Below the pieces are notes generated by a model. It did not search any database, was not told where the DNA came from, and saw only the letters and a program-made list of their open reading frames with translations. A stretch of DNA of 64,000 bases from a candidate division FCPU426 bacterium (GTDB lineage: Bacteria > Oederibacteriota > JAAXVQ01 > JAUVAV01). The stretch is from NCBI GenBank assembly GCA_040756875.1, contig JBFLYH010000001.1, forward strand, positions 288,001-352,000, read 5' to 3'. Position numbers and translations under genes: made by a program. Shown piece by piece: positions 36,295-63,414 of this stretch (positions within the stretch are counted from its first letter, which is position 1; each line of letters begins with the position of its first letter).

Positions 36295-38127
36295 ATGCCG
36301 AATGTAAACCGTATTCCCCGTTTGATGGCAGGCGCAGCCCTTTTACTGCTGTGCGCCGCCGGAGCGGGGGCCGCCACGTATGACGTGACCAGCATCGAGG
36401 ATTCGGGAGCCAACACCCTGCGGTCGGCCATCGCCCAAGCCAATGCCAGCACGGGGGTGGTGGATACGATCAACCTCGCGGTCTCCAATTCCATTACCGT
36501 GTTTTCGGCCTTGAGCGTCACGGACCCGGTGGTCATCCAGGGAAACGGCACCACCCTGGGCGCTTTGAACCAGAATTTTATCGTCTTGAATATGGGGATT
36601 GGTTCGAACGGCAGCGTAGTCCAGGACCTGGCCCTGGTCAGCGGCGGCACGGGTCTGAACGTCCTTTCGTCCGGCAACACCATTCTGGCCTGCTGCTGCG
36701 GCACGGATTGGTCCGGCGCCGCCAACCGCGGCAACACCACGGGCGCCTGGATCGCCGGCGACCACAACATCATCGGCGGCAGCGCGGCCGGGCAGGGCTG
36801 CGTCTTCTCCGGCAATTACCTCGTCGGCCTGCTGGTGGACGGGCAATACAACCGCATCCAGGGCAGTATCATCGGCCTGAATCCCGGCGGTACCGCGCAG
36901 TTGCGCAACGGCGGCGTCGGGCTGAATATCAGCGACCACCGCAACATCGTCGGCGGCCTGGCGGCGGGGGAGGGCAACGTGGTGTCCGGCAACGGCAGCC
37001 AGGGGCTCAACCTCACGGGCGATTACTGCTTGATTTTGGGCAATTACTTCAGTTTCAGTCAGGCCGGGGATCTGGTCATTCAAAACGGCAACAATACGGA
37101 CATGATTGGTTACGGTGCCTACGGTTGGTATGAAGGAAATCATTTCGGCCGGCGGATGTTTTTCCTGAACAGCGGGGCCATCGGCAACACGATGGTTGCC
37201 AATGTGGTGGGTATGTTTCCGGACGGCAGCGGGTTCTCCGGTTCCGCCTACAATGGCATTTATCTGGGTGGGTCCAGCGGTCCGACGGATAACTGCATCG
37301 GATTGCCCAACGGCAATGGCAATCTGTTCGCCGATACCAGCGGCCCGGGTGTTTATATCTCCGGGGCCACGGCCCTGCGAAACAGCGTGATGAGCAATAC
37401 GATCGTGGCCTGCGGCAATCTCCCCGTCTTTTTGGAAAACGGTTCGAACCAGGGGCAACTGCCGCCGGTGGTGATCGCCGCTGCCCCCGGAGGGCCGGTC
37501 CGCGGAACCGCGGATCCGGGTGAATACATCGAGGTGTTTTTGGCCGAGGGCAACGCCGCCAACGACGGCACCGTGCAATACCTCGGCTATGCGGTAGCCA
37601 ACGGGTCCGGAATCTGGCAGCTGAACTCGGCGGCGGTCGTTTTGGGGCAATACGTCTGCGCCCTGGCCACGGACGCTCAAAACAACACCTCCCAACTTTC
37701 TGCGAAAGTCCAGGTCCAGATGCCCACGGCCACACCCACGGCCACGGTCACGCCGACGATCAGCGCCACGCCGACGATCACCCCCACTCCCACGCTGACG
37801 CCCACGGCCACGGTTACATCCACCGCTACGGCCACCCCCACCTCGGCGCTGGCCGGCCTGGATCTGGGCGGCAAAGCGGCCCTGACCTTTCCCAATCCGG
37901 GCCGGAAGCAGATCACTTTTGCAGTCAACCTTCTCCAGCTTGCGACGGTCAAAGTGGTGCTCTACAATCTGTCCGGCGAACGGGTCGCGGAACTATCATC
38001 TGAATTCGGGAGCGGGACCCAAGGCTTGGTTTGGAACTGCGCCGACGCGGCGCCGGGTGTGTACCTCGCGCGGATCTTGGTCAACGGCGATGAGAAAGCC
38101 ACGCTTAAAGTGGCGGTGGTAAAATGA
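36295..38127 (+). CDS. Secreted CSLREA-like/beta-helix protein with Pro/Thr linker and T9SS-like C-terminal domain
   Basis: Signal peptide; VTSIEDSGANTLRSAIAQAN; N.IGG...GN.VSGN repeats; PTATPT linker; FPNP...LYNLSGERV...APGVYLARI...KVAVVK. Confidence 0.85.
   Translation: MPNVNRIPRLMAGAALLLLCAAGAGAATYDVTSIEDSGANTLRSAIAQANASTGVVDTINLAVSNSITVFSALSVTDPVVIQGNGTTLGALNQNFIVLNMGIGSNGSVVQDLALVSGGTGLNVLSSGNTILACCCGTDWSGAANRGNTTGAWIAGDHNIIGGSAAGQGCVFSGNYLVGLLVDGQYNRIQGSIIGLNPGGTAQLRNGGVGLNISDHRNIVGGLAAGEGNVVSGNGSQGLNLTGDYCLILGNYFSFSQAGDLVIQNGNNTDMIGYGAYGWYEGNHFGRRMFFLNSGAIGNTMVANVVGMFPDGSGFSGSAYNGIYLGGSSGPTDNCIGLPNGNGNLFADTSGPGVYISGATALRNSVMSNTIVACGNLPVFLENGSNQGQLPPVVIAAAPGGPVRGTADPGEYIEVFLAEGNAANDGTVQYLGYAVANGSGIWQLNSAAVVLGQYVCALATDAQNNTSQLSAKVQVQMPTATPTATVTPTISATPTITPTPTLTPTATVTSTATATPTSALAGLDLGGKAALTFPNPGRKQITFAVNLLQLATVKVVLYNLSGERVAELSSEFGSGTQGLVWNCADAAPGVYLARILVNGDEKATLKVAVVK
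37723..37842 (+). repeat. Low-complexity repeat encoding the Pro/Thr linker
   Basis: PTATPTATVTPTISATPTITPTPTLTPTATVTSTATATPT. Confidence 0.8.
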
Positions 38128-38807
38128 GGAAACCGCTGGCCGCGCTTGGCTGCCTGTTGGGGATTGCGATCCTGGCAGCCGGCTGCGCCACCCGCGGCCC
38201 CCTAGCCAGCCTTCGCCCGCAGCCGGGCAAGGCGCTGGTAGTGGGCCGGGTTGAAGTTTACTACAACCAAAAACTCCGGAATGAACAGGTTGAACTCCGG
38301 TTCAAGCAACTGACCAGGGTGGCCAAGGACAATACGTTTTATTACGGCCCGGGTGAAGCCGGTCCGAACATTCCCCAACCATACGGGTTGGATGCCTCAG
38401 GGCTACTGGTACTGGCTTTGGAGCCGGGCGAGTGGATCCTGGAACGCATTTTGTGCCATTTGGGTGAAAACCGGGGTGACATGCTTTATGCCTTTTACCG
38501 GGAAAACCCGGTCTTCAATCTGCCGCAGGCTGGAAAAGTTTATTACCTGGGGGACCTCAACATTCGCTGGCAGGGGCCGGAGACCAAGGATTGGGACCTT
38601 TTCAGGACGCTGGATCCCACCGCCCGCCCGGTCAACGACGGCGAGTTGCAGCTTGAAATAAGCGAGGACGCGGAGGGGTTGAGAACGGAACTTAACCGGC
38701 GGTATGGCGCGGTGCCGGAATGGGAGCACGCCGTGCCTGCGATCCAAACGTCCGTTGCCCCTGCCGGGAATACGGTTCCGGCGCAGACGGTTCCGGATTC
38801 CCAGTAG
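38124..38807 (+). CDS. Hypothetical lipoprotein
   Basis: ATGA overlap; lipobox LAAGC; GKALVVGRV...LEPGEW...AGKVYYLGDL. Confidence 0.75.
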   Translation: MRKPLAALGCLLGIAILAAGCATRGPLASLRPQPGKALVVGRVEVYYNQKLRNEQVELRFKQLTRVAKDNTFYYGPGEAGPNIPQPYGLDASGLLVLALEPGEWILERILCHLGENRGDMLYAFYRENPVFNLPQAGKVYYLGDLNIRWQGPETKDWDLFRTLDPTARPVNDGELQLEISEDAEGLRTELNRRYGAVPEWEHAVPAIQTSVAPAGNTVPAQTVPDSQ

Positions 38808-43661: not shown

Positions 43662-43845
43662 GGTTAACAAAGCCTAAAGAAACATTATTTAATATCCGAT
43701 AACTCAATTATATCTTATTATTGGCAGAGACCAACAAGTGATTGAGCCGAAACATGTGTGATAACCATGGCAAATGCAGTTTGATTTCGAGCGGGGGTTA
43801 TTATAAAAATAAAATCGGTAATGATTCTTATAATCGAGATATACG

Positions 43846-43875: not shown

Positions 43876-43957
43876 AAACCCCAACTCAGAGGCCATTTGA
43901 CCTATCGCCGCCTATTCGTTTGCTCCATATAAATAATCATCCCCCAAGGAGTTGAAC

Positions 43958-44524
43958 ATGCCGGCAGAATCCGAAAAAAATCAAACCAGTGGACCGATCC
44001 AGCTTCAGGAACTTGCCGCGCGCGTGGCCAAACTGGAAAAAAACGCCCCCCAGGACCGCCTAACCCTGGGTGTTATGAAAGGCGACCTGGATTACACCAT
44101 GGCCGCATTCATTATCGCCCTGGGAGCCGCAGCCTACGACATGCAGGTGGATTTGTTTTTCACCTTCTGGGCCACAGCCTCCCTGCGGGATCCCAAGAAA
44201 AAGGCCAGGAAGGGCCTGCTGGACAAAATGTTCGGCTGGATGCTGCCCCGGGGGTCTTTCCGGCTGCCCCTGTCGAAGATGCAGATGGCCGGCATCGGCC
44301 CCCTGATGATCCGGCAGGTGATGAAAATGCGGCACGTGAAATCCCTGGAAGGGCTCATGGCCGAAGCGGCAGCCCTGGGCATTCGCATCCACGTATGCAC
44401 CATGTCCATGGATGTCATGGGGATCAAGAAAGAGGAACTGATCGATTATCCGCATATGGATTTTGTCGGCGTGGGAACGTTTGTGGACATGTTCTCCAAT
44501 TCCAAACAGTGCTGGTTCATGTAG
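43958..44524 (+). CDS. DsrE/DsrF/DrsH-like (DsrE2-type) sulfur-transfer protein
   Basis: AFIIALGAAA, LFFTFW, LPLSKM, HVCTMSMDVMGI, GVGTF. Confidence 0.9.
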   Translation: MPAESEKNQTSGPIQLQELAARVAKLEKNAPQDRLTLGVMKGDLDYTMAAFIIALGAAAYDMQVDLFFTFWATASLRDPKKKARKGLLDKMFGWMLPRGSFRLPLSKMQMAGIGPLMIRQVMKMRHVKSLEGLMAEAAALGIRIHVCTMSMDVMGIKKEELIDYPHMDFVGVGTFVDMFSNSKQCWFM

Positions 44525-44819: not shown

Positions 44820-45215
44820 ATGCCTCCATCCCCCAAGATATTGGTTTTTTCCACCAATAATATTTCCGATCCCGGAATCGACTTCGCGGGCAGCGCGCAC
44901 CTTCACTATTCGACCGCGGTGCGCGTGGTAGCCTTGCCCTGTTCCAGCGGGATCAAGCCCGCCTGGATCGAGCACGCCTTGAAGTCCGGGTTCGACGGGG
45001 TGTTCGTCGCGGCCTGCGGAGGAGACTGCGCCTTCTTGCCCAATTGCAACCAGTTGACGGGCCAAGTCGTGCAAAAGGCCCAGGCGCTGCTCAAATCGTC
45101 CGGCCTCAATCCCAAACGGCTGAAGATGGCCGCCATTTGCTCGGTGTGCGCCGAGCAGTTCGTCACGCACATGCACAATTTTGAGAAGGAACTCGTCAAA
45201 CTTGCCGCCTCTTGA
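44820..45215 (+). CDS. mvhD: MvhD/FlpD-like iron-sulfur subunit with atypical Cys pattern
   Basis: PKILVF, D.AG....Y, LPCSS, GFDGVFVAAC..DC, GLNPKRL. Confidence 0.82.
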   Translation: MPPSPKILVFSTNNISDPGIDFAGSAHLHYSTAVRVVALPCSSGIKPAWIEHALKSGFDGVFVAACGGDCAFLPNCNQLTGQVVQKAQALLKSSGLNPKRLKMAAICSVCAEQFVTHMHNFEKELVKLAAS

Positions 45216-47949
45216 AAGCAGTCACCACCACTATGACGCGTTGATCGTCGGCGCGGGCACTTCGGGCATGGAGGCCGCCCTCACGCTGGGCGACATGGGC
45301 CATCGCGTGCTGCTGGTCGAAAAGGAACCCAGCATCGGCGGGAAAACCATCCTGCTGAGCAAGGTGTTTCCCACCCTCGACTGCGCCAGCTGCATCTCCA
45401 CGCCCAAAATGGCGGCCACGGCGCATCATCCGAACGTGACCTTGATGGTTTCCACCGAGGCCGAAGCGGTCGAAAAAAACGACGGCCGTTTCCGGATCAG
45501 GCTGCGCCACCGGGCCACTTCGGTGCATCCTGACTTGTGCACGGGCTGCGGCCAATGCGAAACCGCCTGCACGGTCGCGGTGCCGGACCAGTATAATTAC
45601 GGCCTGGCCGCCCGGCGGGCGGCGCACATTCCCTTTCCCCAGGCCATTCCCAAGAAAGCGGTGATCGAGAAGGAAGGATCCGCGCCCTGCCACCGCGCCT
45701 GTCCGGCCGGGGTGCACGCCAGCGGATTCGTCTCCCTGGTGCGGAGCGGCAAATACCGGGAGGGCTTCCTGCTCCACCTTGAGGATGCGCCCCTGGTCGG
45801 CGTGCTCAGCCGCGCCTGTTACGCGCCCTGTGAAGGGGAATGCACGCGCACCGACCTGGAAGGCGCGGTCAACATCCGCGCCGTCAAGCGTTTCATGTCC
45901 GACCGTTACTACGCCGACCATCCTGAACCTGAATACGGCCCGCCTGCCGAACGCCTGAACACGCGCGTGGCCGTGGTGGGTTCCGGGCCGGCCGGCCTGG
46001 CCGCGGCCTTTTACCTCGCCCGCCAAGGGCACGGCGTGACGATCTTCGAGTCGCAGCCCGAACCCGGCGGCATGCTGCGCTACGGCATTCCGGCCTACCG
46101 CCTGCCGCGCGAAGTGGTGGACCGGGACATCAGGAACGTCACAGCCCTGGGCGTGGAGATCAAGACCAACGCCAAAGTGGAATCGCTCGCGGCCCTCCAG
46201 GGCCAAGGCTTTGACGGCGTCGTCGTGGCCGTGGGCGGGCAGGTGCCCCGCATCGTGCCGCTGGCGGGCGTTGAACGGGTCGACCAGGACGACTGCATGA
46301 ATTTCCTCAGCCACAGCCAGAGCAAACAGGCGGAGATCCGCAACCGGCACGTGGTGGTGATCGGCGGCGGCAACGTGGCCATGGACGTGGCGCGTTCGGC
46401 CGTGCGCCTGGGTGCGGCCGCGGTCTCGGTGCTGTGCCTGGAGTGCCGGGCTGACATGCCGGCCCACCCCTTCGAAGTGGTGGAAGCCGAGGAAGAGGGA
46501 GTTAATTTCCATCCGGCCTCGGTCACCAACCGCATTTTCAGCGGGCCGGAAGGCCCGCTGCTCGAGTTCGTGCAAATTCATTCGTTCCAAATGGTGGAAG
46601 GCAAACCGAGTTATCAAACCATGCCGGGCAGTGAACGGCAAATCCGCGCGGACGTGGTGATCATGGCGGTCGGCCTTGCGCCCAGCACCTTGCCGTTCCG
46701 CGGGGAAGTGGAGCTCAACCGCAACCAGACCATCCGCGCGGACGAGGAAACGCTGGAAACCTCCCGGCCGCTGGTTTTTGCCTGCGGCGACGCGGTCATG
46801 GGGCCGGCCATCATTGTCAAATCCATCGGCCAGGGCAAGCGGGCCGCGCACTATCTGGATTTGAAGCTCAAGCAACAGCCTTTGGCGCCCGCAGCCTGGA
46901 TGGCTCTGCCGGAGGCGGCTGACAAAGTCGCGGTGCTTAAAAATGAAAAAGGCGCGCCGAGGCGGGAACCGGCGGCCCAGCGGATGAAAACTCCCAAGGA
47001 ACGCGTGGCCAGCTTCGAAGCGTACGAAGGCGCGCTGACGGAAGCGGAGGCGCGCTCAGCCGCAGGCCGCTGCCTGGATTGCGCGGTCTGCTCCCAGTGC
47101 CTGGAGTGCGTGCGCGTCTGCCCGGCGAATGCCGTTGATTTCGGCATCCGTCCGCGCATGGAACAGGTGACCGCCTCGGCCGTCATCCTGGCCGGCGGGT
47201 TCGAGATCCTCGATCCGGCCGCCAAGCCGCTGCTGGGATTCGGCCGTTATCCCGACGTCCTTTCCGCGCCGCAGATGGACCGCCTGCTGGCTCCCACGCG
47301 GCCGTTCAACGGCGTGCTGCGCCCGTCCGACGGCCGGGAACCGGAACACATCGCCATGGTGCTGTGTTCAGGGGCCAGGGACCATACGGTTTGCAACCCC
47401 CTCTGCTGCCGGATCGGGTGCATGTACGCCCTCAAACAGGCGCAGTTGCTGATGGGCGCACTGCCCCTGGCCGAGGTCACGATTTACTACATCGACATCC
47501 GCGCCTTCGGCAAGGGGTACGACGAGTTTTTCGAACAGGCCAGGGGCATGGGCGTCAAATTCGCGAAAGGCAAAGTTGTCCGCATCGAGGAAAAGCCGGG
47601 GGGCGGCCTGCTTCTGCATTACGAGGACATGGCCGCGGGTGCGGGCCCCAAAACCGCGGAGCATGACCTGGCCGTGCTGTCCGTGGGCCTGCAGCCCAAC
47701 CGCGCGCTCCTGGACCGGCTGGGAGCCCTGCGGCCGGAAACCGACGAGCAGGGATACGTGCGCGAAGCCGGCGGCATGACTGATCCGGCCGCCACCAATG
47801 TTGAAGGCCTGTTCGTGGCCGGCGCTTTTCCCGGGGGCCGCGACATCCCGGATGCGGTGCTGCACGCCGCGGCCACGGCCACGCAGGCTGCGCGTTATCT
47901 GGCGAAAAAAGAAAACCAGCCGGCCGGACCGGCGCAGGAGGGCCGCTGA
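45181..47949 (+). CDS. hdrA: HdrA-like flavoprotein with inserted GltD/NfnB-like NAD(P)H oxidoreductase module (HdrL type); start may be TTG 45202
   Basis: IVGAGTSG, LSKVFPTLDCASC, CTGCGQCETAC, APCHRACP...CYAPCEGEC, VGSGPAG, IGGGNVAMD, RCLDCAVCSQCLECVRVCP, YYIDIRAFGK. Confidence 0.92.
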   Translation: MRRNSSNLPPLESSHHHYDALIVGAGTSGMEAALTLGDMGHRVLLVEKEPSIGGKTILLSKVFPTLDCASCISTPKMAATAHHPNVTLMVSTEAEAVEKNDGRFRIRLRHRATSVHPDLCTGCGQCETACTVAVPDQYNYGLAARRAAHIPFPQAIPKKAVIEKEGSAPCHRACPAGVHASGFVSLVRSGKYREGFLLHLEDAPLVGVLSRACYAPCEGECTRTDLEGAVNIRAVKRFMSDRYYADHPEPEYGPPAERLNTRVAVVGSGPAGLAAAFYLARQGHGVTIFESQPEPGGMLRYGIPAYRLPREVVDRDIRNVTALGVEIKTNAKVESLAALQGQGFDGVVVAVGGQVPRIVPLAGVERVDQDDCMNFLSHSQSKQAEIRNRHVVVIGGGNVAMDVARSAVRLGAAAVSVLCLECRADMPAHPFEVVEAEEEGVNFHPASVTNRIFSGPEGPLLEFVQIHSFQMVEGKPSYQTMPGSERQIRADVVIMAVGLAPSTLPFRGEVELNRNQTIRADEETLETSRPLVFACGDAVMGPAIIVKSIGQGKRAAHYLDLKLKQQPLAPAAWMALPEAADKVAVLKNEKGAPRREPAAQRMKTPKERVASFEAYEGALTEAEARSAAGRCLDCAVCSQCLECVRVCPANAVDFGIRPRMEQVTASAVILAGGFEILDPAAKPLLGFGRYPDVLSAPQMDRLLAPTRPFNGVLRPSDGREPEHIAMVLCSGARDHTVCNPLCCRIGCMYALKQAQLLMGALPLAEVTIYYIDIRAFGKGYDEFFEQARGMGVKFAKGKVVRIEEKPGGGLLLHYEDMAAGAGPKTAEHDLAVLSVGLQPNRALLDRLGALRPETDEQGYVREAGGMTDPAATNVEGLFVAGAFPGGRDIPDAVLHAAATATQAARYLAKKENQPAGPAQEGR

Positions 47950-49685
47950 TGGCCGCGAACCCTTCCCCGGAAAAACGGATCGGCGTGTACGTCTGCTACT
48001 GCGGCGGCAATATATCGGATTACGTCGATGTGCAGAAGATCGCGGAAGCGGTCAGGCAGGAGCCGGGCGTGACGGTTGCCCGCAACCACATGTTCACCTG
48101 TTCGGATGCTGCCCAGCAGGAAATCATCCAGGACATCAAGGATCAGCACCTGGACGGCCTGGTGATCGCCTCCTGTTCCCCCAAACTTCATATGTTCACC
48201 TTCCGGGGCATGGCCGAGCGCGCGGGCATCAACCCCTACCAGTATATCCAGGTGAACCTGCGCGAGCAGTGCTCCTGGGCCCACCGGCAGGAGCGCGACC
48301 AGGCGACCCAAAAGGGCGTGGCCTTGGTCAAAGCCGGCATTGCCAAAGCCCGTTTCACCGAGCCGCTGGCCCCCATCCGGGTGACCACCAAGCCCAGGGT
48401 CCTGGTGGTCGGCGGCGGCATGACCGGCCTGGCCGCGGCCCGGGCCTTGTCGGACCTCGGAATCGGGGTGGACCTGGTCGAGAAAAGCGGCCGCCTGGGC
48501 GGATGGACCGCCGAGTGGGAGCGCGTGTATCCGGGCGGTCAGGACGGAGTCGCCCTGGCCAAGGCCCTGGCCGGGGAAGTGGCCGGGCGGCCGAACGTGC
48601 GGGTATGGACTGAAACCGAAGTGGTGGACAAAGGCGGACACCTGGGTGATTTCGAAATCACCGTGCAGTCGCCCGACGGCCGCCACACACTGTCCGCCGG
48701 CGCCATCGTGGCGGCCACGGGTTTTGATCCTTACCAGCCCCAGGCCGGGGAATTCGGCTACGGCCTGCCGGACGTGGTGACCCTGCCGGATTTCAAGAAA
48801 AGGCTGGGAACGGGGAAGCCGCTGGCCACGGCCGACGGCCGGCCGGTGAAGAAAATCGCTTACATCTACTGCGTGGGCAGCCGGCAGAAAAAAGCGCCGG
48901 GAGCCAATACCCACTGCTCCCGTTATTGCTGCACCGCAGCCTGCTTTTCCAGCGTCAGCGTGCACGCGGCGGATCAGGAAGTCGTCCAGTACCATTTGTT
49001 CCGCGACATCCGCACATTCGGGGAACACGAGCTGCTGTACGAACAGGCGCGCCGGGAGGGCGCCGTGTTCCTGCGCTACGAAGCCGGGGAACCGCCCCAG
49101 GTGGAGTCCGCGGAACAAGGCCTGCTGGTCTCGGTCAAGGATCAGCTGACCGCGGGCGAGCTGCTGGAGATTCCGGCCGACCTGGTGGTCCTGGTCACGG
49201 GCATGACACCCCGTAAAAACGAGAATCTGGTCAATGTCCTGAAGGTGCCGGTCGGGAGCAACGGTTTTTTCAATGAAATCCACCCCAAGCTGCGGCCTGT
49301 GGAAACGGTCATGGACGGCATTTTCATCGCCGGCGCGGCCCAAAGCCCGCGCCTGATCGGCGAGGCGGTCGGATCCGCCTTGGCGGCGGTGAGCAAATGC
49401 GGCGCCCTGCTGAAGAAGGGGTTCGTGGACCTGGAACCCTTGATCGCCACGGTGCGCCAGGATCGCTGCGAATGGTGCGGGCTGTGCCAGCCCGTATGCC
49501 CCTACCGGGCCATCGAGATGGTGTCCTGCGACGGCAAGGACAAAGCGCAGATCATCCCCTTTTTATGCAAAGGCTGCGGCGCCTGCGTGCCGATGTGCCC
49601 CAAAGACGCCATTGACGTCAAAGGCTACAGCGACGAGCAAATCACATCCATGATTTCAGCTTTGGCTGGGGAGCGGACAGCATGA
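47949..49685 (+). CDS. hdrA: Heterodisulfide reductase subunit A family protein (QmoB-like architecture, no fused MvhD)
   Basis: IGVYVCYCGGNI, VIASCSP, NLREQCSW, VVGGGMTG, YCVGSR, HCSRYCC, HPKLRP, C-terminal 2x[4Fe-4S]. Confidence 0.94.
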   Translation: MAANPSPEKRIGVYVCYCGGNISDYVDVQKIAEAVRQEPGVTVARNHMFTCSDAAQQEIIQDIKDQHLDGLVIASCSPKLHMFTFRGMAERAGINPYQYIQVNLREQCSWAHRQERDQATQKGVALVKAGIAKARFTEPLAPIRVTTKPRVLVVGGGMTGLAAARALSDLGIGVDLVEKSGRLGGWTAEWERVYPGGQDGVALAKALAGEVAGRPNVRVWTETEVVDKGGHLGDFEITVQSPDGRHTLSAGAIVAATGFDPYQPQAGEFGYGLPDVVTLPDFKKRLGTGKPLATADGRPVKKIAYIYCVGSRQKKAPGANTHCSRYCCTAACFSSVSVHAADQEVVQYHLFRDIRTFGEHELLYEQARREGAVFLRYEAGEPPQVESAEQGLLVSVKDQLTAGELLEIPADLVVLVTGMTPRKNENLVNVLKVPVGSNGFFNEIHPKLRPVETVMDGIFIAGAAQSPRLIGEAVGSALAAVSKCGALLKKGFVDLEPLIATVRQDRCEWCGLCQPVCPYRAIEMVSCDGKDKAQIIPFLCKGCGACVPMCPKDAIDVKGYSDEQITSMISALAGERTA

Positions 49686-49918
49686 GAAACCTGAGGACCG
49701 TCATGCGCGATGAAATGGTCAAACGCGACGAAATCCTGCGTTTGCTGCAGGACGGCCCCAAAACCGTTCCCGAGATCGCCCGGGCCCTGAACGCGCCCAC
49801 GGCGGATGCGGTGTTGTGGATGATGGCCATGCGCCGGTACGGCTGGATTGCGGAAACCGGCCGGCCGAATACCGAAGGCTATTTTGCCTATGCCCTGATC
49901 AAGAAGGACCAGCCATGA
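49682..49918 (+). CDS. Small winged helix-turn-helix protein
   Basis: EILRLLQDGPKTVPEIARAL...MRRYGWIAETG; ATGA-coupled on both sides. Confidence 0.8.
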   Translation: MRNLRTVMRDEMVKRDEILRLLQDGPKTVPEIARALNAPTADAVLWMMAMRRYGWIAETGRPNTEGYFAYALIKKDQP

Positions 49919-50214
49919 CCCGGGTCAACGCGGAATTCCCGAAGACATTCGATGCCACGGGCGAATTCGACGCCGCGCCCTGCATGAACTGCGGCACGTG
50001 CACGGCGTTGTGCCCCATGGAATTGACCAGCCTGCCGCGCGAACTGTTCCGCTACGCCCAACTGGGAATGGCGGACAAAATCGGCCAGCACGCGGAGACG
50101 GTTTTTTCCTGCCTGCTCTGCCGCATGTGCGAGGTCAACTGCCCCTCCCAGGTGAAGATCGCGGGCAATGTGCGGGCATTGCGGGCCTACCTCAACCGCA
50201 AGGAGGGCGTGTGA
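49915..50214 (+). CDS. HdrC-like 4Fe-4S dicluster protein
   Basis: CMNCGTCTALCP and CLLCRMCEVNCP. Confidence 0.88.
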   Translation: MTRVNAEFPKTFDATGEFDAAPCMNCGTCTALCPMELTSLPRELFRYAQLGMADKIGQHAETVFSCLLCRMCEVNCPSQVKIAGNVRALRAYLNRKEGV

Positions 50215-51185
50215 GCGCGAACTCCCTGCCGCGGAAACATGTCATCGGCATCCTGGCGGACAACCTCCGCCTGCGGGGAAGCGTCATGCCGCTTTCCGGC
50301 CGCCGCCTCACCGCCTGGGCCAGGGGTTTGCATCTGCCTCGCGGCGGGGACACCGTGATTTACACCGGCCACATGTATCAAATGATGCCCGCCCTGGGCT
50401 CTCTGGAGGCGGGGCTGGCTCTGGCCGCGAAACTGTCGCTCACCCGGTTGATGGGCCTCGGCCGCTGGGTGAACCGGCTGGTCGACCTGTCAACGTTCAT
50501 GACCTGGCCATCAGGCCGGGAGCAGCGCGAGTACGACGGCCGCTTGCGCCGGATCGCGAAACGGCTGCTGGCCGCCAAGGTAACCTTCGGGTATCTGTAC
50601 GAAAAGGAACTGTACACCGGCGCGCTGCTCTACGATTTGGGGGCCGAGGAGGTCTTTCGCAGCCATGCGCAGAAGGTCTGGCACCTGCTCAAGGCGCAAG
50701 GCGTGAAACGCGTGATTACCGTCGATCCCCATACCATGGATATGCTGCGCGAAGTCTATCCCCGTTATTGTCCGGATTACCGGATGGAAGTCGTCAGTTA
50801 TCTTGAAGTGCTATCGCAGGCAGAGGCGCCCGCAGCGCCAAACGCCGGCAAGATGGCGAAGGAGTGCGTGGCGCTCCACGATTCCTGCCTCTATGCCCGG
50901 GTGTTGGACGTTGTCGAACCGCCCCGGCGGTTGCTGGCGCAAGACCGCCGGCCTGAGGCCGAACATGCCCAATCGCGGGCCGCGACCCATTGTTGCGGCG
51001 GCCCGCTTGAATCCCTGTTTCCGGACAAAGCCGAGACAGTGGCCAGGACCCGGTTTGCCCAGTTGGAGCAGACCGGTTGCAAATCCGTTGCCGCCATGTG
51101 TCCCATCTGCCTGCACAATCTGCGCAAAGCCGCAGCCGGGAAGGGAATCGAGGTCAGGGATTTTTCGGAAGTTTTGGACCGTTGA
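50211..51185 (+). CDS. CCG-domain Fe-S protein (HdrB/HdrD-like)
   Basis: GTG start in a GTGA overlap with GGAGG RBS; ITVDPH, LHDSC, HCCGG, MCPIC. Confidence 0.87.
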   Translation: MSANSLPRKHVIGILADNLRLRGSVMPLSGRRLTAWARGLHLPRGGDTVIYTGHMYQMMPALGSLEAGLALAAKLSLTRLMGLGRWVNRLVDLSTFMTWPSGREQREYDGRLRRIAKRLLAAKVTFGYLYEKELYTGALLYDLGAEEVFRSHAQKVWHLLKAQGVKRVITVDPHTMDMLREVYPRYCPDYRMEVVSYLEVLSQAEAPAAPNAGKMAKECVALHDSCLYARVLDVVEPPRRLLAQDRRPEAEHAQSRAATHCCGGPLESLFPDKAETVARTRFAQLEQTGCKSVAAMCPICLHNLRKAAAGKGIEVRDFSEVLDR

Positions 51186-55802: not shown

Positions 55803-57548
55803 ATGATGATGAAAATATACTTGCGACAATTGGGCATAATTATTAAAAGGATGGCGCTGGGCGCCGTAACGTTGGGTCTCGCGGGAACGGCTCCTTGCTT
55901 TGCCGCAGAGTTGTTGCGCAGCGTTGGATATGGAAACGTAGATCCGCTTAGAGACGGCGCTACTCCGCCGGCGATAACCATGCGCATTATATCCAGCGCG
56001 CAATTCAGCGCAGATCTGCCTTTGAACATCGGGGTGGGTGACTGCATTATTTATGATTCGGGAACGGATCATGTTTATGATTCCGTCGCATTCATTTATC
56101 AGCGCCTGGATGCCCGTAACTATCAGGTTTGCGATGCCGCCGGACAGGATCCCGTTACCACTACTGGATATATTCAGGATTGGAGGATTTACCGGGCGTA
56201 TGCTTCGTTAGCGGATGCAGCCCGGGGTCTGGAAAATCCTGGGATGAGCGGTTTTTCAGGATGGAATTTTGACAATCACATGGCCAGCTTCGCCATGACG
56301 GATTCCTGGAGCTTTGCCTGTTATGCGGATGCCCCCAATACCAATACTGCGGATTTCAGCGCCTGGATGACCGCCATACCCCAAAATAGATTGAAAATAT
56401 TCGTTCCGGCTATCACCACTTCCGGCGGGGAAGTCGGTGTTTCTCAGAGGCACAACGGCGTGTGGAGCGCGAGCGCCTTTGTGTTCGTGGTCGGGAATTC
56501 AACCGGGCTGAATGTGATGAGAAATACAACCATTGAGGGCCTGCAATTTCAGAATACCGGCGGCACTGCCAATATTGCCGCCGTATACGGGGCATTCATC
56601 ACGGATTCGGATGTGCGAATAACGAAATGCATTTTCCGGGGACCCGGGGGCTCAACCGACGCCGTTCTCCATGCGCTTGATTTTGGCAATATGAACGCGG
56701 GAGAAGTCAAAATCTGGAACAATATTTTTTATGATTATAAAACCATTGCCGAAGGAAATGCGGCCATCTATGCGACCTCCACGGCAGCCGGCTTTCTGAT
56801 TCATTGTTACCACAATACCATTGTGAATTGCGAAAGCGGTATTAACGCGGCGAACCAAGCGGTTGCTTATGCCAAAAATTGCATGGTTTTGGATATCGAC
56901 CTCGCGTTGGGCGCCAGTTACAGCGGAGTGGCGGCAGCCGGTTCAACCAATAATCTGTCGAATGACGGCATTCTTCCTCCTGGGGCAGGCTCGAGGAACG
57001 GCACGCCGCTGTTTGCCGATGCCGCGGGCAAGAATTTCCATTTGGCCGCCGCGGACACGATAGCCTGCAATCAAGGCGCGGATTTAACCGGCGATGCCTA
57101 TTTGTATATCAACGATGATATTGATGGGAATATTCGGGGGGCATATGACGGTTGGGATATTGGTGCGGATGAACTGGCCCTGCAGCCCACTTTTACTCCG
57201 AGTGTTTCACCAACCATCAGTCCGACCCCGACTCAAACTCCGACACGGACGACGACCCCCTCGCTAAGCGCCTCCCTGCCTGAACCTGCCCAGGAAATCG
57301 CTTATCCCAATCCTGCCCGCAGCGGTGTGGTGGCTTTCACCAGCAGGCCCGGAACGGGTGAACGTGTGACGGTCCGGGTTTTCACCATGGCTTACCGCCA
57401 AGTTTGGCATGCGACGATTGCGGGTGTCCCGGGCCAGATCAATCGGATGGAATGGAACATCAGCGGCATGCCTCCGGGGATCTATCTGTACCAGATCGAA
57501 ACCGGCTCCAGAAAAACGCCATTTAAAAAATTGGCCATCATCAAATGA
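55803..57548 (+). CDS. Secreted beta-helix-like protein with Pro/Thr linker and T9SS-like C-terminal domain
   Basis: Signal peptide; WNNIFY/YHNTIV repeats; NFHL...DIDG..R...WDIGADE; PTFTPSVSPTISPTPT; AYPNP...WNISGMPPGIYLYQI...KKLAIIK. Confidence 0.82.
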   Translation: MMMKIYLRQLGIIIKRMALGAVTLGLAGTAPCFAAELLRSVGYGNVDPLRDGATPPAITMRIISSAQFSADLPLNIGVGDCIIYDSGTDHVYDSVAFIYQRLDARNYQVCDAAGQDPVTTTGYIQDWRIYRAYASLADAARGLENPGMSGFSGWNFDNHMASFAMTDSWSFACYADAPNTNTADFSAWMTAIPQNRLKIFVPAITTSGGEVGVSQRHNGVWSASAFVFVVGNSTGLNVMRNTTIEGLQFQNTGGTANIAAVYGAFITDSDVRITKCIFRGPGGSTDAVLHALDFGNMNAGEVKIWNNIFYDYKTIAEGNAAIYATSTAAGFLIHCYHNTIVNCESGINAANQAVAYAKNCMVLDIDLALGASYSGVAAAGSTNNLSNDGILPPGAGSRNGTPLFADAAGKNFHLAAADTIACNQGADLTGDAYLYINDDIDGNIRGAYDGWDIGADELALQPTFTPSVSPTISPTPTQTPTRTTTPSLSASLPEPAQEIAYPNPARSGVVAFTSRPGTGERVTVRVFTMAYRQVWHATIAGVPGQINRMEWNISGMPPGIYLYQIETGSRKTPFKKLAIIK

Positions 57549-59014
57549 AACCTTCCTGCCTCATCTTTTTGATTTTATCTCTCGCAGGCGTTCTGGGAGC
57601 CCGTCCCGCTTTTGCCCAGGCGGCGGGCGAACTGTTGCTCCTTGATAAAGGGGCGCGCGCGGCAGCCTTGGCCGGTGCTTTGTGCGCTTCTCCGGAATCA
57701 GGTCCTTTCGGGTTTGTCTACAATCCGGCCGGATTGGCGGCTCAAAACGTCTTGGCTTTCGGTTTCGAGCATAATGAATGGGGACAGGGCATGCGCGGGG
57801 AATATCTGGCTGCTGCCAGCCCGCTGGGGTCCGGAACCCTGGCCGGGGCACTGGATTATTTTTCGTACGGGACCTTGGAAGTCACGGATGGAAACGGCCG
57901 GATCAGCGGTGAAACCCTCGCACCCTATCTGCTAGGGGCAAGATCCGCCTATGCCCTGTGGGTACGGCCTCGTCTGGCAGCAGGGGCCCAAGTTGATTTT
58001 TATATGGAAAACATCGGCGACTTCACCGAGCTGGGTGGCGGACTCTCTGTGGGTGCTTTCTGGAAGTCGCCCTGGCAGGGGGTGAGCGCTGGCTTGACGG
58101 TGCGAAATCTCGGGCTGACCCGCTCCGGCTATAGCCTTCCCAGCCGGGTGATTTTGGGCTGCTCCTGGATGAACGCCCTGGTCGATCGATTAGCACTCTA
58201 CCTGGAAACGGGATTTAATTGGGTGGATTCAGAGGCGGCTGTGGCTTTGGCCGCAGAATATCAAGCCCTTTCTTGGCTGGATCTGCGACTGGGATATCGC
58301 CCACATCTGTCTATGGCGGAAACCGCCCCCTTGGGTGTAACCGCTGGGATCGGGTTTCATTGGCAGGACTGGCAGCTGGGATATGCCGTGGTGCCTTTGG
58401 GGGAATGGGGCTGGGCTCACCGGCTCTCGCTGGAAATGGCGATTAAACCGGCTCCAAACCTGGAACAGATTCCCGGTAAAACTGCCGCAGTGTCGTCACA
58501 GCCTGCTCGAAAAACCGCCGAGGACATGGCCAAACAACTGGCCGGCGTGGTCAGAAAACGGTTTGAATTAGGGCTGAAACAATATCAGAATGGCAATTAC
58601 AAAGCCGCCATTCGCGAGTGGAAAATGGTATTGGATATTGCTCCTCATCATGAGGAAACCAAGGAATACATACAAAAAGCGGAAAACAAGTGGGAGGCAC
58701 TGCTGGACAATTACCGGCAGAACGCCAGGCAGGCCCGGCTGCAAAAGGATTTGGCGGAAGAGATAATGAACTGGAAGGACGTTTTGGCATTGGTACCCGG
58801 AGATCAGGAGGCGCAACAGGGGTTGGAGAGCGCCCAGAAACTGGTGCCTGCCATGGCCCAGGCCTATTACAACGCCGGCCTGGATGATTACAGCAAGGGC
58901 CGTTATCAGGAAGCAATAAAGAATTGGGAAAAAGTCCTGGCGTTGGATCCTGGTCACTACAAAGCCATGGAAAGCATCCAAAAAACCAAGGAAAAATTGA
59001 TAAAAATCGAATAA
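57545..59014 (+). CDS. PorV/PorQ (FadL-like) beta-barrel protein fused to C-terminal TPR repeats
   Basis: Signal peptide; GARAAALAGA, VYNPAGLA, GLTVRNLG, LRLGY, GIGF...YA..P.GEWG..HRLSL; then TPRs (GLKQYQNGNYKAAIREWKMVL, GLDDYSKGRYQEAIKNWEKVLALDP). Confidence 0.85.
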   Translation: MKPSCLIFLILSLAGVLGARPAFAQAAGELLLLDKGARAAALAGALCASPESGPFGFVYNPAGLAAQNVLAFGFEHNEWGQGMRGEYLAAASPLGSGTLAGALDYFSYGTLEVTDGNGRISGETLAPYLLGARSAYALWVRPRLAAGAQVDFYMENIGDFTELGGGLSVGAFWKSPWQGVSAGLTVRNLGLTRSGYSLPSRVILGCSWMNALVDRLALYLETGFNWVDSEAAVALAAEYQALSWLDLRLGYRPHLSMAETAPLGVTAGIGFHWQDWQLGYAVVPLGEWGWAHRLSLEMAIKPAPNLEQIPGKTAAVSSQPARKTAEDMAKQLAGVVRKRFELGLKQYQNGNYKAAIREWKMVLDIAPHHEETKEYIQKAENKWEALLDNYRQNARQARLQKDLAEEIMNWKDVLALVPGDQEAQQGLESAQKLVPAMAQAYYNAGLDDYSKGRYQEAIKNWEKVLALDPGHYKAMESIQKTKEKLIKIE

Positions 59015-62172: not shown

Positions 62173-62352
62173 GAGGAAGCATCGGAAAACCGCAAAAATA
62201 CATTATATAATAAACGGATCATATTGCTAACGGCAATAAACGGCCGGCGATTAAAGGTCGCCAAGCGAAACATTAAAGAATTTACGGAATTGGTGCGAAA
62301 TATAAGGATGGAGCGGGCCGGGGGCACAAACCAGGGAAGGTGCGTGCCTTCA

Positions 62353-63414
62353 ATGATCATCGCCGCCAGCCAGGTTTCATTTCAGCAGACGTATCTGAAT
62401 GTTCAGCAACAATCTATCGAGGAAAAATTGAAAGCCTGGATTGGACCGAGGCCGCAAACCGCCCCTGCGTCCGAACCGGCACTGGCTCGGGATTCGCTCG
62501 AACTGTCCGCTCGGGCGCTTGCCGCCTGCCGGAGTCAGGTGGAGGAAATAGAAGCCGCTCTCGTGGAGGACAGGGACGGGGAAAGCGAACTGGACCCCAA
62601 ACTGCGGTTGATCAAGCTGCTGGTGGAGAAGTTGTTCGGCCGCCGGATTCATATTGTGACGAGTGCGGAATTGCAAACCGCGGATCAAACGGAAGGCCAG
62701 CCGGCGCCCGGAGAGACGGAAACCAACCGATCGTCCTCGGATCCGGGATACGGGGTGGAATATAATCGCCGCATGCTGACATACCAGATGGAAAAAAACA
62801 CCTTTCAAGCCCGCGGTACTGTGCGGACCCAGGATGGCAAGGAGGTCCGATTCAGTTTGAGCCTGGAGATGCAATGGGAACGGCTCACCGATGAACAAGT
62901 CAGCATCCGTTTGGGCAATGCGCTGCAAGACCCGTTGGTCATCAATTTCGACGGCCGGGCGGCCGAACTGTCGGACGTGCGGATGAAGTTTGATTTGGAT
63001 GGCGATCAAAAAATGGATTTGGTGAATACGTTAAAACCCCATAGCGGCTTTTTGGCGTTGGACGTCAACGGAGACGGCAAAATCAACAATGGCATGGAAT
63101 TATTCGGCCCGCGGACCGGAGACGGATTGCGGGAATTGAGCGCTTACGACAGCGACCAGAACCGCTGGATCGATGCCAACGATGAGGTTTTCGGCCGGTT
63201 GAAAATCTGGAACCGGAACGAGCAAGGCCAGGATCAAATTCGCACGCTGGCCGATGCCGGAATCGGCGCGATCTACCTGGAGGCGGCATCCGCTCCATTT
63301 ACCCTGCGCGGCGAAGATCAGCAGGTTCAGGGGCAAGTCAAATCGACGGGATTGTATCTCAATGAAAATGGAAGCGCGGGGACGATACAGCAAGTGGATT
63401 TGGCTGTTGCCTAG
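62353..63414 (+). CDS. Hypothetical protein with C-terminal Ca2+-binding, FrpC self-processing-module-like domain
   Basis: GGAAGG RBS before ATG 62353; D|PLVINFDG, FDLDGD, GFLALDVNGDGKINNGMELFG, YDSDQNRWIDANDEVFGRLKIW, RTLADAGIGAIYL. Confidence 0.8.
   Translation: MIIAASQVSFQQTYLNVQQQSIEEKLKAWIGPRPQTAPASEPALARDSLELSARALAACRSQVEEIEAALVEDRDGESELDPKLRLIKLLVEKLFGRRIHIVTSAELQTADQTEGQPAPGETETNRSSSDPGYGVEYNRRMLTYQMEKNTFQARGTVRTQDGKEVRFSLSLEMQWERLTDEQVSIRLGNALQDPLVINFDGRAAELSDVRMKFDLDGDQKMDLVNTLKPHSGFLALDVNGDGKINNGMELFGPRTGDGLRELSAYDSDQNRWIDANDEVFGRLKIWNRNEQGQDQIRTLADAGIGAIYLEAASAPFTLRGEDQQVQGQVKSTGLYLNENGSAGTIQQVDLAVA

Follow-up and report, generated by a model that had tools for sequence, protein, structure and literature searches.

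We analyzed a stretch of 64,000 nucleotides from a candidate division FCPU426 bacterium (hereafter the window) and found that a gene on its forward strand, at positions 62353 to 63414, encodes a short protein whose residues 194-353 constitute a self-processing module (SPM) of the type known from the Neisseria protein FrpC, both in sequence and in predicted fold. The protein belongs to a family in which an N-terminal domain is combined with such a module, and as a family its genes are to be counted among the flagellar genes. This assignment draws on evidence of three independent kinds: co-occurrence with FlhA, sigma-28-type promoters, and gene order. We hold this flagellar association to be true with high confidence, and we consider it fairly probable that the protein is a late flagellar gene product that is exported without Sec or type I secretion and cleaves itself on meeting calcium.

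The C-terminal domain is an FrpC-type self-processing module

A word-indexed search with the window protein returned 1210 proteins at E<=0.001, the best 120 of which are all 334-379 residues long, 38-46% identical to the query and cover the whole of it. Residue counts given below refer to an alignment of 115 members, consisting of the query and 114 of these best 120 matches; left out were P0002, which is the window protein with another start, and P0025, P0032, P0049, P0057 and P0101, with a query coverage of 95% or less. The gene and the parts of the module are:

62353..63414 (+): coding sequence, 353 amino acids and stop codon; member of the short 'N-domain + SPM' family (PF26745, SPM, in Pfam 38.1)
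62929..62934 (+): Asp193-Pro194, the predicted scissile bond, invariant in 115/115 aligned members
62932..63411 (+): self-processing module, residues 194-353, reaching the C-terminus, as defined by sequence and predicted structure
63061..63099 (+): EF-hand-like Ca2+ loop D237-E249, aligned to FrpC D462-E474
63148..63183 (+): EF-hand-like Ca2+ loop D266-D277, aligned to FrpC D499-D510
63208..63234 (+): W286, aligned to FrpC W519, with a shortened loop that has 3 residues fewer than FrpC D521-E532
63388..63408 (+): C-terminal strand QQVDLAV, with D349-L350 set against FrpC D579-L580 from the range of the structural superposition alone

A preliminary description of this gene, made without database searches, had placed Asp193-Pro194 at codons 62929-62934 as the opening of a 160-residue C-terminal domain, and had noted a likeness of this domain to the FrpC SPM. 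Both coordinates and length are correct, and the likeness was recovered by sequence and by structure. When all PDB chains were searched with phmmer, the sole matches were 6sjw and 6sjx, which are the FrpC SPM (E 2.6e-6), and a profile of 20 family sequences aligned query residues 194-321 to residues 2-145 of the chain at E 4.3e-13. An AlphaFold2 model of the window protein was built on the 115 sequences (mean pLDDT 75.9, with values of 80-98 over residues 190-353). Foldseek matched this model to 6sjx (E 4.2e-10, target TM 0.71, 179 columns) and to nothing else in the PDB at E<=1e-3, and VIA-align against 48,161 representative chains superposed residues 194..353 of the model on residues 1..171 of 6sjw (Z 19.4, root-mean-square deviation 2.8 A over 148 residues), the next unrelated match having a Z of 5.2. 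In the Atlas, PF26745 'SPM' is carried by 100% of the members of the nearest clusters. A scan of the window protein with a Pfam set that does not include PF26745 gave EF-hand matches only, all of them below threshold, and an NCBIfam search of it matched 0 families.

Four Ca2+ sites are described for FrpC (D419-G424 with D456; D462-E474; D499-D511; D521-E532), together with an aromatic pair W451-W519 and a 'narrow port' formed by W451, L475, G477, G491 and D579-L582 (PMC7078468). We mapped the features given there onto the window protein through a HMMER alignment and the family columns. Of the four EF-hand-like sites the second and third are fully kept, the fourth is shortened, and the first is without its ligands. 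In the loop D237-E249, all 115 members have D237 and E249 and 114 have N239, with either D (101 members) or N (14 members) at position 241; in the loop D266-D277 the residues D266, N270, W272, D274 and D277 are present in every member. FrpC L475, G477, G491 and W519 have their equivalents in L250, G252, G258 and W286, the last being W in 114/115 members, and within the shortened loop position 289 is D in 106/115 members and N in the window protein, with D294 kept. At the predicted cleavage site D193, P194, L195 and N198 are invariant in 115/115 members, so that the Asp-Pro pair is conserved in homologues, a check that the preliminary description had called for. All invariant family residues are present in the window protein, where T226, N289 and Q192 represent minority states. 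The residue preceding the Asp is K in 86 members, T in 12, Q in 9, V in 4, S in 2, and H and I in 1 each. D, G and P, which are reported to nearly block cleavage of the FrpC SPM when placed before the Asp (PMC7846742), do not occur at this position.

At the C-terminus, D349-L350 are probably the counterparts of FrpC D579-L580, as judged from the modelled structure. At position 349, 111 of the 115 members have D and the other 4 have N, and in 111/115 members the protein ends exactly 3 residues past the conserved Asp at this position. The C-terminal sequence profile aligned to residues 92-145 of the FrpC chain only (E 0.087) and did not reach the D349 region. According to the mutant analysis of FrpC, D579N is active and D579A inactive, and D478A merely reduces cleavage (PMC7078468). 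We regard it as very likely that the SPM of the family is catalytically active.

Features of Sec-dependent proteins, lipoproteins, RTX proteins and type I substrates are absent from the window protein. The GGxGxD motif was not found in it and HemolysinCabind gave no match at E<=1, in agreement with the earlier statement that it has no RTX repeats. A signal peptide, whose absence had also been claimed, and membrane segments were not detected either, the top 12-residue Kyte-Doolittle mean being 1.31 and that of the N-terminus 0.78. The protein is acidic (isoelectric point 4.7) and has one Cys, and cleavage at the Asp-Pro bond is predicted to yield fragments of 21.7 and 17.5 kDa, close to the earlier estimate of ~22 and ~17 kDa.

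The short family is linked to flagella

To score FlhA we used PF00771 at E<=1e-30. In a sample of 301 genomes from the order of an Azonexus carrier, the family profile matched 78 genomes at E<=1e-10: 45 with a full-length family gene (best E<=1e-60), 31 with the SPM only, mostly inside open reading frames (ORFs) of 1000-4775 residues, G324 with a family gene in pieces, and G270 with an N-terminal fragment at a contig end. FlhA was present in 45/45 family carriers as compared to 206/301 genomes overall (Fisher p 7e-9). The SPM-only genomes provide an internal control, in which FlhA was found in 23/31, near background. In a Desulfobacterota-type phylum sample (251 genomes, phylum of Desulfosediminicola), FlhA was present in 16/17 carriers of the family or its paralogue at E<=1e-40 versus 143/251 overall (p 7e-4), and the exception, G572, contains two Flagellin_N genes. 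In a Bacillota class sample (123 genomes, class of a Pelotomaculum carrier), FlhA was present in 22/23 genomes with a match, four of these matches being partial, versus 105/123 overall; here the exception, G636, has a TAG stop inside its family gene. Pooled over the three clade samples, in which the family occurs in 7-19% of the genomes, FlhA was found in 83/85 family-positive genomes. It was also present in 10/10 scattered carriers (Sandaracinaceae, Brocadiaceae, Ignavibacteria, Nitrospirae, a delta metagenome-assembled genome (MAG), and 5 Bacillota).

The consensus of sigma-28/sigma-D promoters is TAAA-N15-GCCGATAA. We scored the 200 nt upstream of the start codon for TAAA-N14-16-GCCGATAA (12 positions) in 73 loci, which are the 74 loci with the query start aligned minus one that was short of upstream sequence. 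A match of >=10/12 was found in 47/73 homologue loci, of >=11 in 19, and of 12/12 in 5. Such matches were rare in the controls: among 2095 random windows of 200 nt drawn from these loci, 1.9% reached >=10/12, as did 16/635 (2.5%) of the upstream regions of other called genes and 8/325 of those with >=100 nt of intergenic space. By their record titles, the loci scoring >=11 belong to Beta- and Gammaproteobacteria, delta and Desulfobulbaceae MAGs, Nitrospirae, Bacillota and Brocadiaceae.

The third line of evidence comes from gene order. In the Bacillota class all loci (4/4) have the family gene within the flagellar cluster, adjacent to fliD or flaG; three of them (L109, L110 and L111) are from genomes that were picked since their family gene lies 14-19 kb from flhA on the same contig. 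In the fourth, L076 from a Pelotomaculum MAG, the family gene is followed after a gap of 67 nt by fliD and then fliS. In L109 the gap is 43 nt and the order continues with fliD, fliS, a flgN-like gene, flaG, flgB, flgC, fliE, fliF and fliG, while a divergent fliW-csrA-flagellin group is found upstream. In L110 the family gene is located between flaG and flgB on the opposite strand. L111 has the order flgL-like, fliW, csrA, flagellin, a 415-residue ORF, family gene, fliD, fliS, flgN-like and flaG, with a 12/12 promoter match just upstream of the MKI start of the family gene. No conserved partner gene was found among 70 loci; the commonest neighbour is ferrochelatase (15/70), an adjacency that represents betaproteobacterial synteny with hrcA, grpE, dnaK, recN and NAD kinase. 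ABC, membrane-fusion and TolC exporter genes are absent among the conserved neighbours, which, together with the lack of RTX repeats, upholds the earlier view that this module occurs here outside the RTX and type I context. The 415-residue ORF of L111 (9447-10691, -) has no Pfam match.

The preliminary description had also proposed a flagellar link, for the reason that the N-terminal part contains a DSLELSARA motif like that of FlgM-type export substrates. The link itself is strongly supported by the three lines of evidence above, but the reason given for it is not. The motif is indeed present at residues 47-55, in the least conserved part of the protein; at E<=1, however, the FlgM model (PF04316) gave no match to the window protein or to a set of 20 other family sequences, and a search of the whole genome at this threshold picked other loci and not the window locus.

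N-terminal part and extent of the family

The N-terminal part and the linker comprise the following features:

62359..62442 (+): N-terminal beta-hairpin, residues 3-30, conserved from the first residues, also in the paralogue subfamily (MKIxxSxxxLxxxH)
62458..62742 (+): variable insert, residues 36-130, helical in part (53-72, 82-95 and 104-112); pLDDT mostly 41-74
62491..62517 (+): DSLELSARA motif, residues 47-55, inside the variable insert
62749..62904 (+): two long, conserved beta-hairpins, residues 133-184, located before the cleavage site and forming a sheet with the N-terminal hairpin in the model
62905..62928 (+): flexible linker, residues 185-192, with Q before the Asp here and K in 86/115 members

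In the model the hairpins 3-30, 133-159 and 164-184 are joined in one sheet, the helical insert 53-112 is modelled with less confidence, and segment 183-191, just before the scissile bond, is disordered (pLDDT <50). No credible fold match was obtained for the N-domain, the best VIA-align hit being a MACPF hairpin at Z 5.2 and 9.9 A. Gasdermin pores, aegerolysin pores and G5 domains were considered as its fold and rejected (Z 4 or less); all of these scores, that of the MACPF hairpin included, are within the stated noise of the tool. For residues 1-192 the Atlas returned nothing usable from its named clusters. When the N-terminal 193 residues alone were compared by phmmer with 1.84 billion cluster representatives, 806 matches were obtained at E<=0.001. 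The best 150 of these are mostly proteins of ~330-400 residues that are matched from their own N-terminus, so that an SPM follows, and no known protein is among them; thus, the N-terminal part and the SPM go together. About two dozen of the best 150 are shorter (165-295 residues) and are possibly fragments, and one repeat protein of 1161 residues matched with residues 161-179 only, twenty times.

The family is widespread. A degenerate-pattern scan with one genome per species confirmed at least 589 stretches, each from the genome of a species, in several phyla. By their record titles, the 80 retained loci include Beta- and Gammaproteobacteria, Desulfobacterota, Nitrospirota, Bacillota, Ignavibacteria, Brocadiaceae and Sandaracinaceae, and the family is thus found in monoderm Bacillota as well. 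Cultured carriers among the loci include Methylomonas methanica, Hydrogenophaga defluvii, Undibacterium spp., Desulfosediminicola flagellatus and Azonexus sp. Some members of the family also carry PF28292 (DUF8379).

A paralogue subfamily of ~320-450 residues (L095-L108; for example G060:C5:347657-348604 and G061:C1:1488613-1489470) often occurs in the same genome as the main form. It has kept the N-terminal hairpin, the hairpins before the cleavage site and the SPM, the middle insert being replaced, and a sigma-28-like site of >=10/12 was found in 4/14 of its loci. SPM modules are also common inside giant ORFs (1000-4775 residues) and on plasmids, annotated as 'calcium-binding protein', and some giant ORFs contain two SPM matches, such as one of 3531 residues in G071:C17. 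In a plasmid search 57 records matched, through the SPM part only, and 0 covered >=80% of the query. Two family genes look decayed: G636:C37:40707-41771, with a single TAG stop in a genome without FlhA, and G324:C6:99071-100205, split into three parts and carrying two TAG stops, in a genome that does have FlhA.

The window gene and its genome

The upstream region of the window gene contains two features:

62334..62340 (+): ribosome-binding-like GGGAAGG, 12 nt upstream of ATG 62353, read from the sequence
62228..62253 (+): weak sigma-28-like site TAAC-N14-GGCGATTA, 9/12, 125 nt upstream of the ATG; not above chance

The public gene call (P0002) starts at GTG 62344, 3 codons earlier, giving a protein of 356 residues. 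We consider ATG 62353 to be the likelier start because of the GGGAAGG at 62334-62340 and because homologues begin with MKI or MII: the N-terminus is MKI in 85/115 aligned homologues and MII, as in the window protein, in 8. The gene is the sole copy in its genome. Its GC content of 0.55 falls within the range of 0.47-0.58 over 58-64 kb, without any anomaly of composition. It stands alone on the + strand, with genes for a periplasmic binding protein and an MCP (-) on one side and fabH (-) on the other, and in a synteny comparison with the same-genus genome the MCP signalling domain was the only match. The genome has flhA closely followed by a fliA-like gene, together with flagellin and two genes of the FlgM family, on another contig. 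The idea of a genome-specific sigma-28 motif was rejected: canonical sites of 12/12 or 11/12 precede clpB, a hybrid kinase, topA and other genes, and the best site near flagellin scores 9/12.

Elsewhere in the window an 11/12 sigma-28 match, TAAAG...TCCGATAA at 43675-43702 (+), is located 249 nt upstream of a DsrE-like ORF (43952-44524); this is probably a chance occurrence because other near-perfect sites in the genome precede clpB and topA. The DsrE-like gene adjoins a run of genes for an HdrA-like flavoprotein and Fe-S proteins (45181-51185, +; Pyr_redox_2, Fer4 and CCG domains), pointing to a sulfur- or heterodisulfide-type energy metabolism. ORFs of 610, 227 and 581 residues at 36295-38807 (+) and 55803-57548 (+) have no Pfam match at E<=1e-5, and the 581-residue ORF overlaps by 4 nt with the start of a 489-residue protein (57545-59014) that has a signal-peptide-like N-terminus and TPR repeats.

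Proposed mechanism and alternative explanations

On the reading that we favour, the protein would be made late in flagellar assembly, as a product of class III expression, and would reach the outside independently of Sec and type I secretion, the simplest route being the export channel of the flagellar type III system. We infer this route because it is the one that all carriers, diderm and monoderm, have in common, and consider it a serious possibility that falls a little short of being probable. The SPM would remain unfolded at the Ca2+ concentration of the cytoplasm and fold at that of the exterior; the Asp-Pro amide would be twisted and the Asp193-Pro194 bond would break, leaving the 17.5 kDa SPM and a 21.7 kDa N-terminal fragment with a C-terminal Asp anhydride. 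This anhydride could be hydrolyzed, or could form an isopeptide bond with a nearby lysine of a flagellar part, of another copy of the protein or of a surface. Since the family gene adjoins fliD, the cap or the filament is a natural candidate for the target. In its most specific form, which we offer tentatively and as a doubtful rather than a probable version, the protein would be a new flagellar accessory protein that is exported by the type III system, cuts itself once exposed to extracellular Ca2+ at the tip of the filament or close to it, and couples its beta-rich N-terminal fragment of 21.7 kDa covalently, by way of the Asp193 anhydride, to a lysine that may belong to the cap, to the filament or to a surface in contact with it.

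A number of observations weigh against this reading, on different levels. Export, Ca2+-dependent cleavage and covalent linkage to a target are steps that we infer, and sigma-28 regulation does not prove export because sigma-28 regulons also hold cytoplasmic proteins. The FlhA statistics ignore kinship among the genomes, and flagellated genomes may share a lifestyle or size that gives rise to the co-occurrence. Most proteobacterial loci have housekeeping genes as neighbours, and a Pfam scan of 14 diverse loci revealed flagellar neighbours in one (L076) and none in the other 13. As for the window copy, its neighbours (MCP, periplasmic binding protein, FabH) are not flagellar, its best sigma-28-like site scores 9/12, a value of >=9 being reached by ~15% of the random 200-nt control windows, and the canonical sigma-28 consensus does not mark the known flagellar genes of its genome. 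That genome is also the sole family carrier among 60 genomes (>=90% completeness) of its phylum, and the same-genus genome G019 has no family gene, which suggests gain by transfer or repeated loss; the one other match in the phylum is an SPM inside an ORF of 1078 residues. Finally, the module departs from FrpC in several places: the first, incomplete Ca2+ site D419/D421/D423 with D456 corresponds to N198, a variable position 200, T or R at 202, and S231; D478 corresponds to P253; the W451 position is F in 99/115 members and T226 in the window protein; and the third EF loop is 3 residues shorter, with N at 289 in the window protein.

These last differences would be expected if the domain were a mere Ca2+-binding fold without catalysis and the protein stayed uncleaved, and in the parts of PMC7078468 and PMC12538545 drawn upon here cleavage is shown only for RTX-type SPMs. 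Yet the 115 members show little or no variation in the Asp-Pro and in the LV(I)NF after it, and because overall identity is only ~40%, such conservation at a junction between linker and domain is hard to explain without a cleavage reaction. Moreover, D478A merely reduced cleavage in FrpC, and the essential D579 position appears to be kept, with N as the minority state that FrpC tolerates. We therefore consider a non-catalytic domain quite improbable. A protein of the flagellar regulon that is not exported by the flagellum deserves more weight, although we still hold it to be unlikely. It might act in the cytoplasm as an irreversible Ca2+ switch on motility or chemotaxis, or leave the cell by lysis, vesicles or some other route. 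Sigma-28 regulons do include cytoplasmic proteins of the chemotaxis and Mot systems, in 8/70 loci the gene immediately downstream, on the same strand, encodes an MCP, in the window an MCP gene is found two genes away, and no export signal could be recognised in the window protein with the tools used. Against this, the FrpC SPM is reported to need sub-millimolar to millimolar Ca2+ (0.5-10 mM tested; PMC7846742), whereas cytosolic Ca2+ is given as <100 nM (PMC7078468), and the neighbours in the Bacillota class are exported late parts and their chaperones (flagellin, fliD, fliS, flgN-like and flaG) rather than che genes.

Two further explanations carry still less weight. If the protein were a secreted anti-sigma-28 factor like FlgM, its insert would bind FliA and the SPM would dispose of it after export; the motif, in the form DxVxLSxxA, resembles the start of the FlgM domain, and the family shares sigma-28 promoters with flgM. 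This becomes very improbable in view of the failure of the FlgM model to match any of the 20 members or to pick the window locus, of the two FlgM-family genes that the genome already has, and of the location of the motif within the very insert that the paralogues replace. Hardly more credible, and in our estimate the least probable of all, is a miniature substrate of type I secretion that would use the conserved C-terminal D-L-x-V as its signal. The ending of 111/115 members, three mostly hydrophobic residues past a conserved Asp, recalls the C-terminal motif of protease-type substrates of this pathway, but the superposition places these residues in the last strand of the SPM (353 of the model on 171 of the chain); this strand therefore accounts for their conservation, and we rejected the idea of a type I signal. 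The lack of RTX repeats and of conserved exporter genes and the occurrence in monoderm Bacillota also speak against it, as does the fact that the SPM of giant ORFs does not track flagella while the short family does.

Comparison with known systems

The SPM is described as defining a subclass of RTX exoproteins (PMC7078468), and, as far as PMC7078468 and PMC12538545 are drawn upon here, demonstrations of cleavage are confined to FrpC, ApxIVA, FrpA and two hemolysin-type homologues. Full-text literature searches listed no paper that, judged by title and abstract, deals with a non-RTX or flagellar SPM protein. Identifying the domain is not new in itself because databases already label the family 'SPM domain-containing'. 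So far, however, the SPM reaction has been treated as a peculiarity of an RTX toxin subclass of pathogens, whereas in the family the module forms the working part of a short protein that occurs in the genomes of at least 589 species from several phyla. The three lines of evidence make this an unstudied, widespread late gene whose chemistry is predictable and easily assayed, and because cultured carriers exist among the loci, the flagellar idea is directly testable. The Ca2+-induced Asp-Pro cleavage through an anhydride already serves as a protein-ligation tool (NeissLock), and the family is a large natural source of compact SPM variants for protein engineering. If the most specific form of the proposed mechanism is true, it would be the first natural clip-and-link chemistry outside RTX and type I secretion, in Gram-negative and Gram-positive bacteria alike and within the sigma-28 regulon.

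Although the window domain is a true homologue of the FrpC SPM, the protein as a whole does not belong to the RTX clip-and-link exoproteins. The two modules are 28% identical, superpose over their full length (Z 19.4), and share the Asp-Pro at the N-terminal boundary, two EF-hand-like loops, W519, the equivalents of G477, G491 and L475, and a probable equivalent of D579. Unlike FrpC, the window module ends a protein of 353 residues without RTX repeats or type I context that is tied to flagellar genes in diderms and monoderms; the module is without the first incomplete Ca2+ site, D478 and W451 and has a shorter third loop. The protein resembles FlgM, the anti-sigma-28 factor exported by the flagellar type III system, in being small, acidic and partly disordered, without a Sec signal, and in having a sigma-28-type promoter at the family level and a short DxVxLSxxA motif; it differs in the lack of a match to the FlgM model, in its beta-rich core and SPM, and in the presence of two separate FlgM genes in the genome. 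With the late flagellar operon genes of Bacillota (hag, fliD, fliS, fliT/flgN and flaG) the family shares position and direction in 3/4 loci as well as a sigma-D-like promoter, whereas it is similar to none of their products and does not have the terminal helices of axial proteins.

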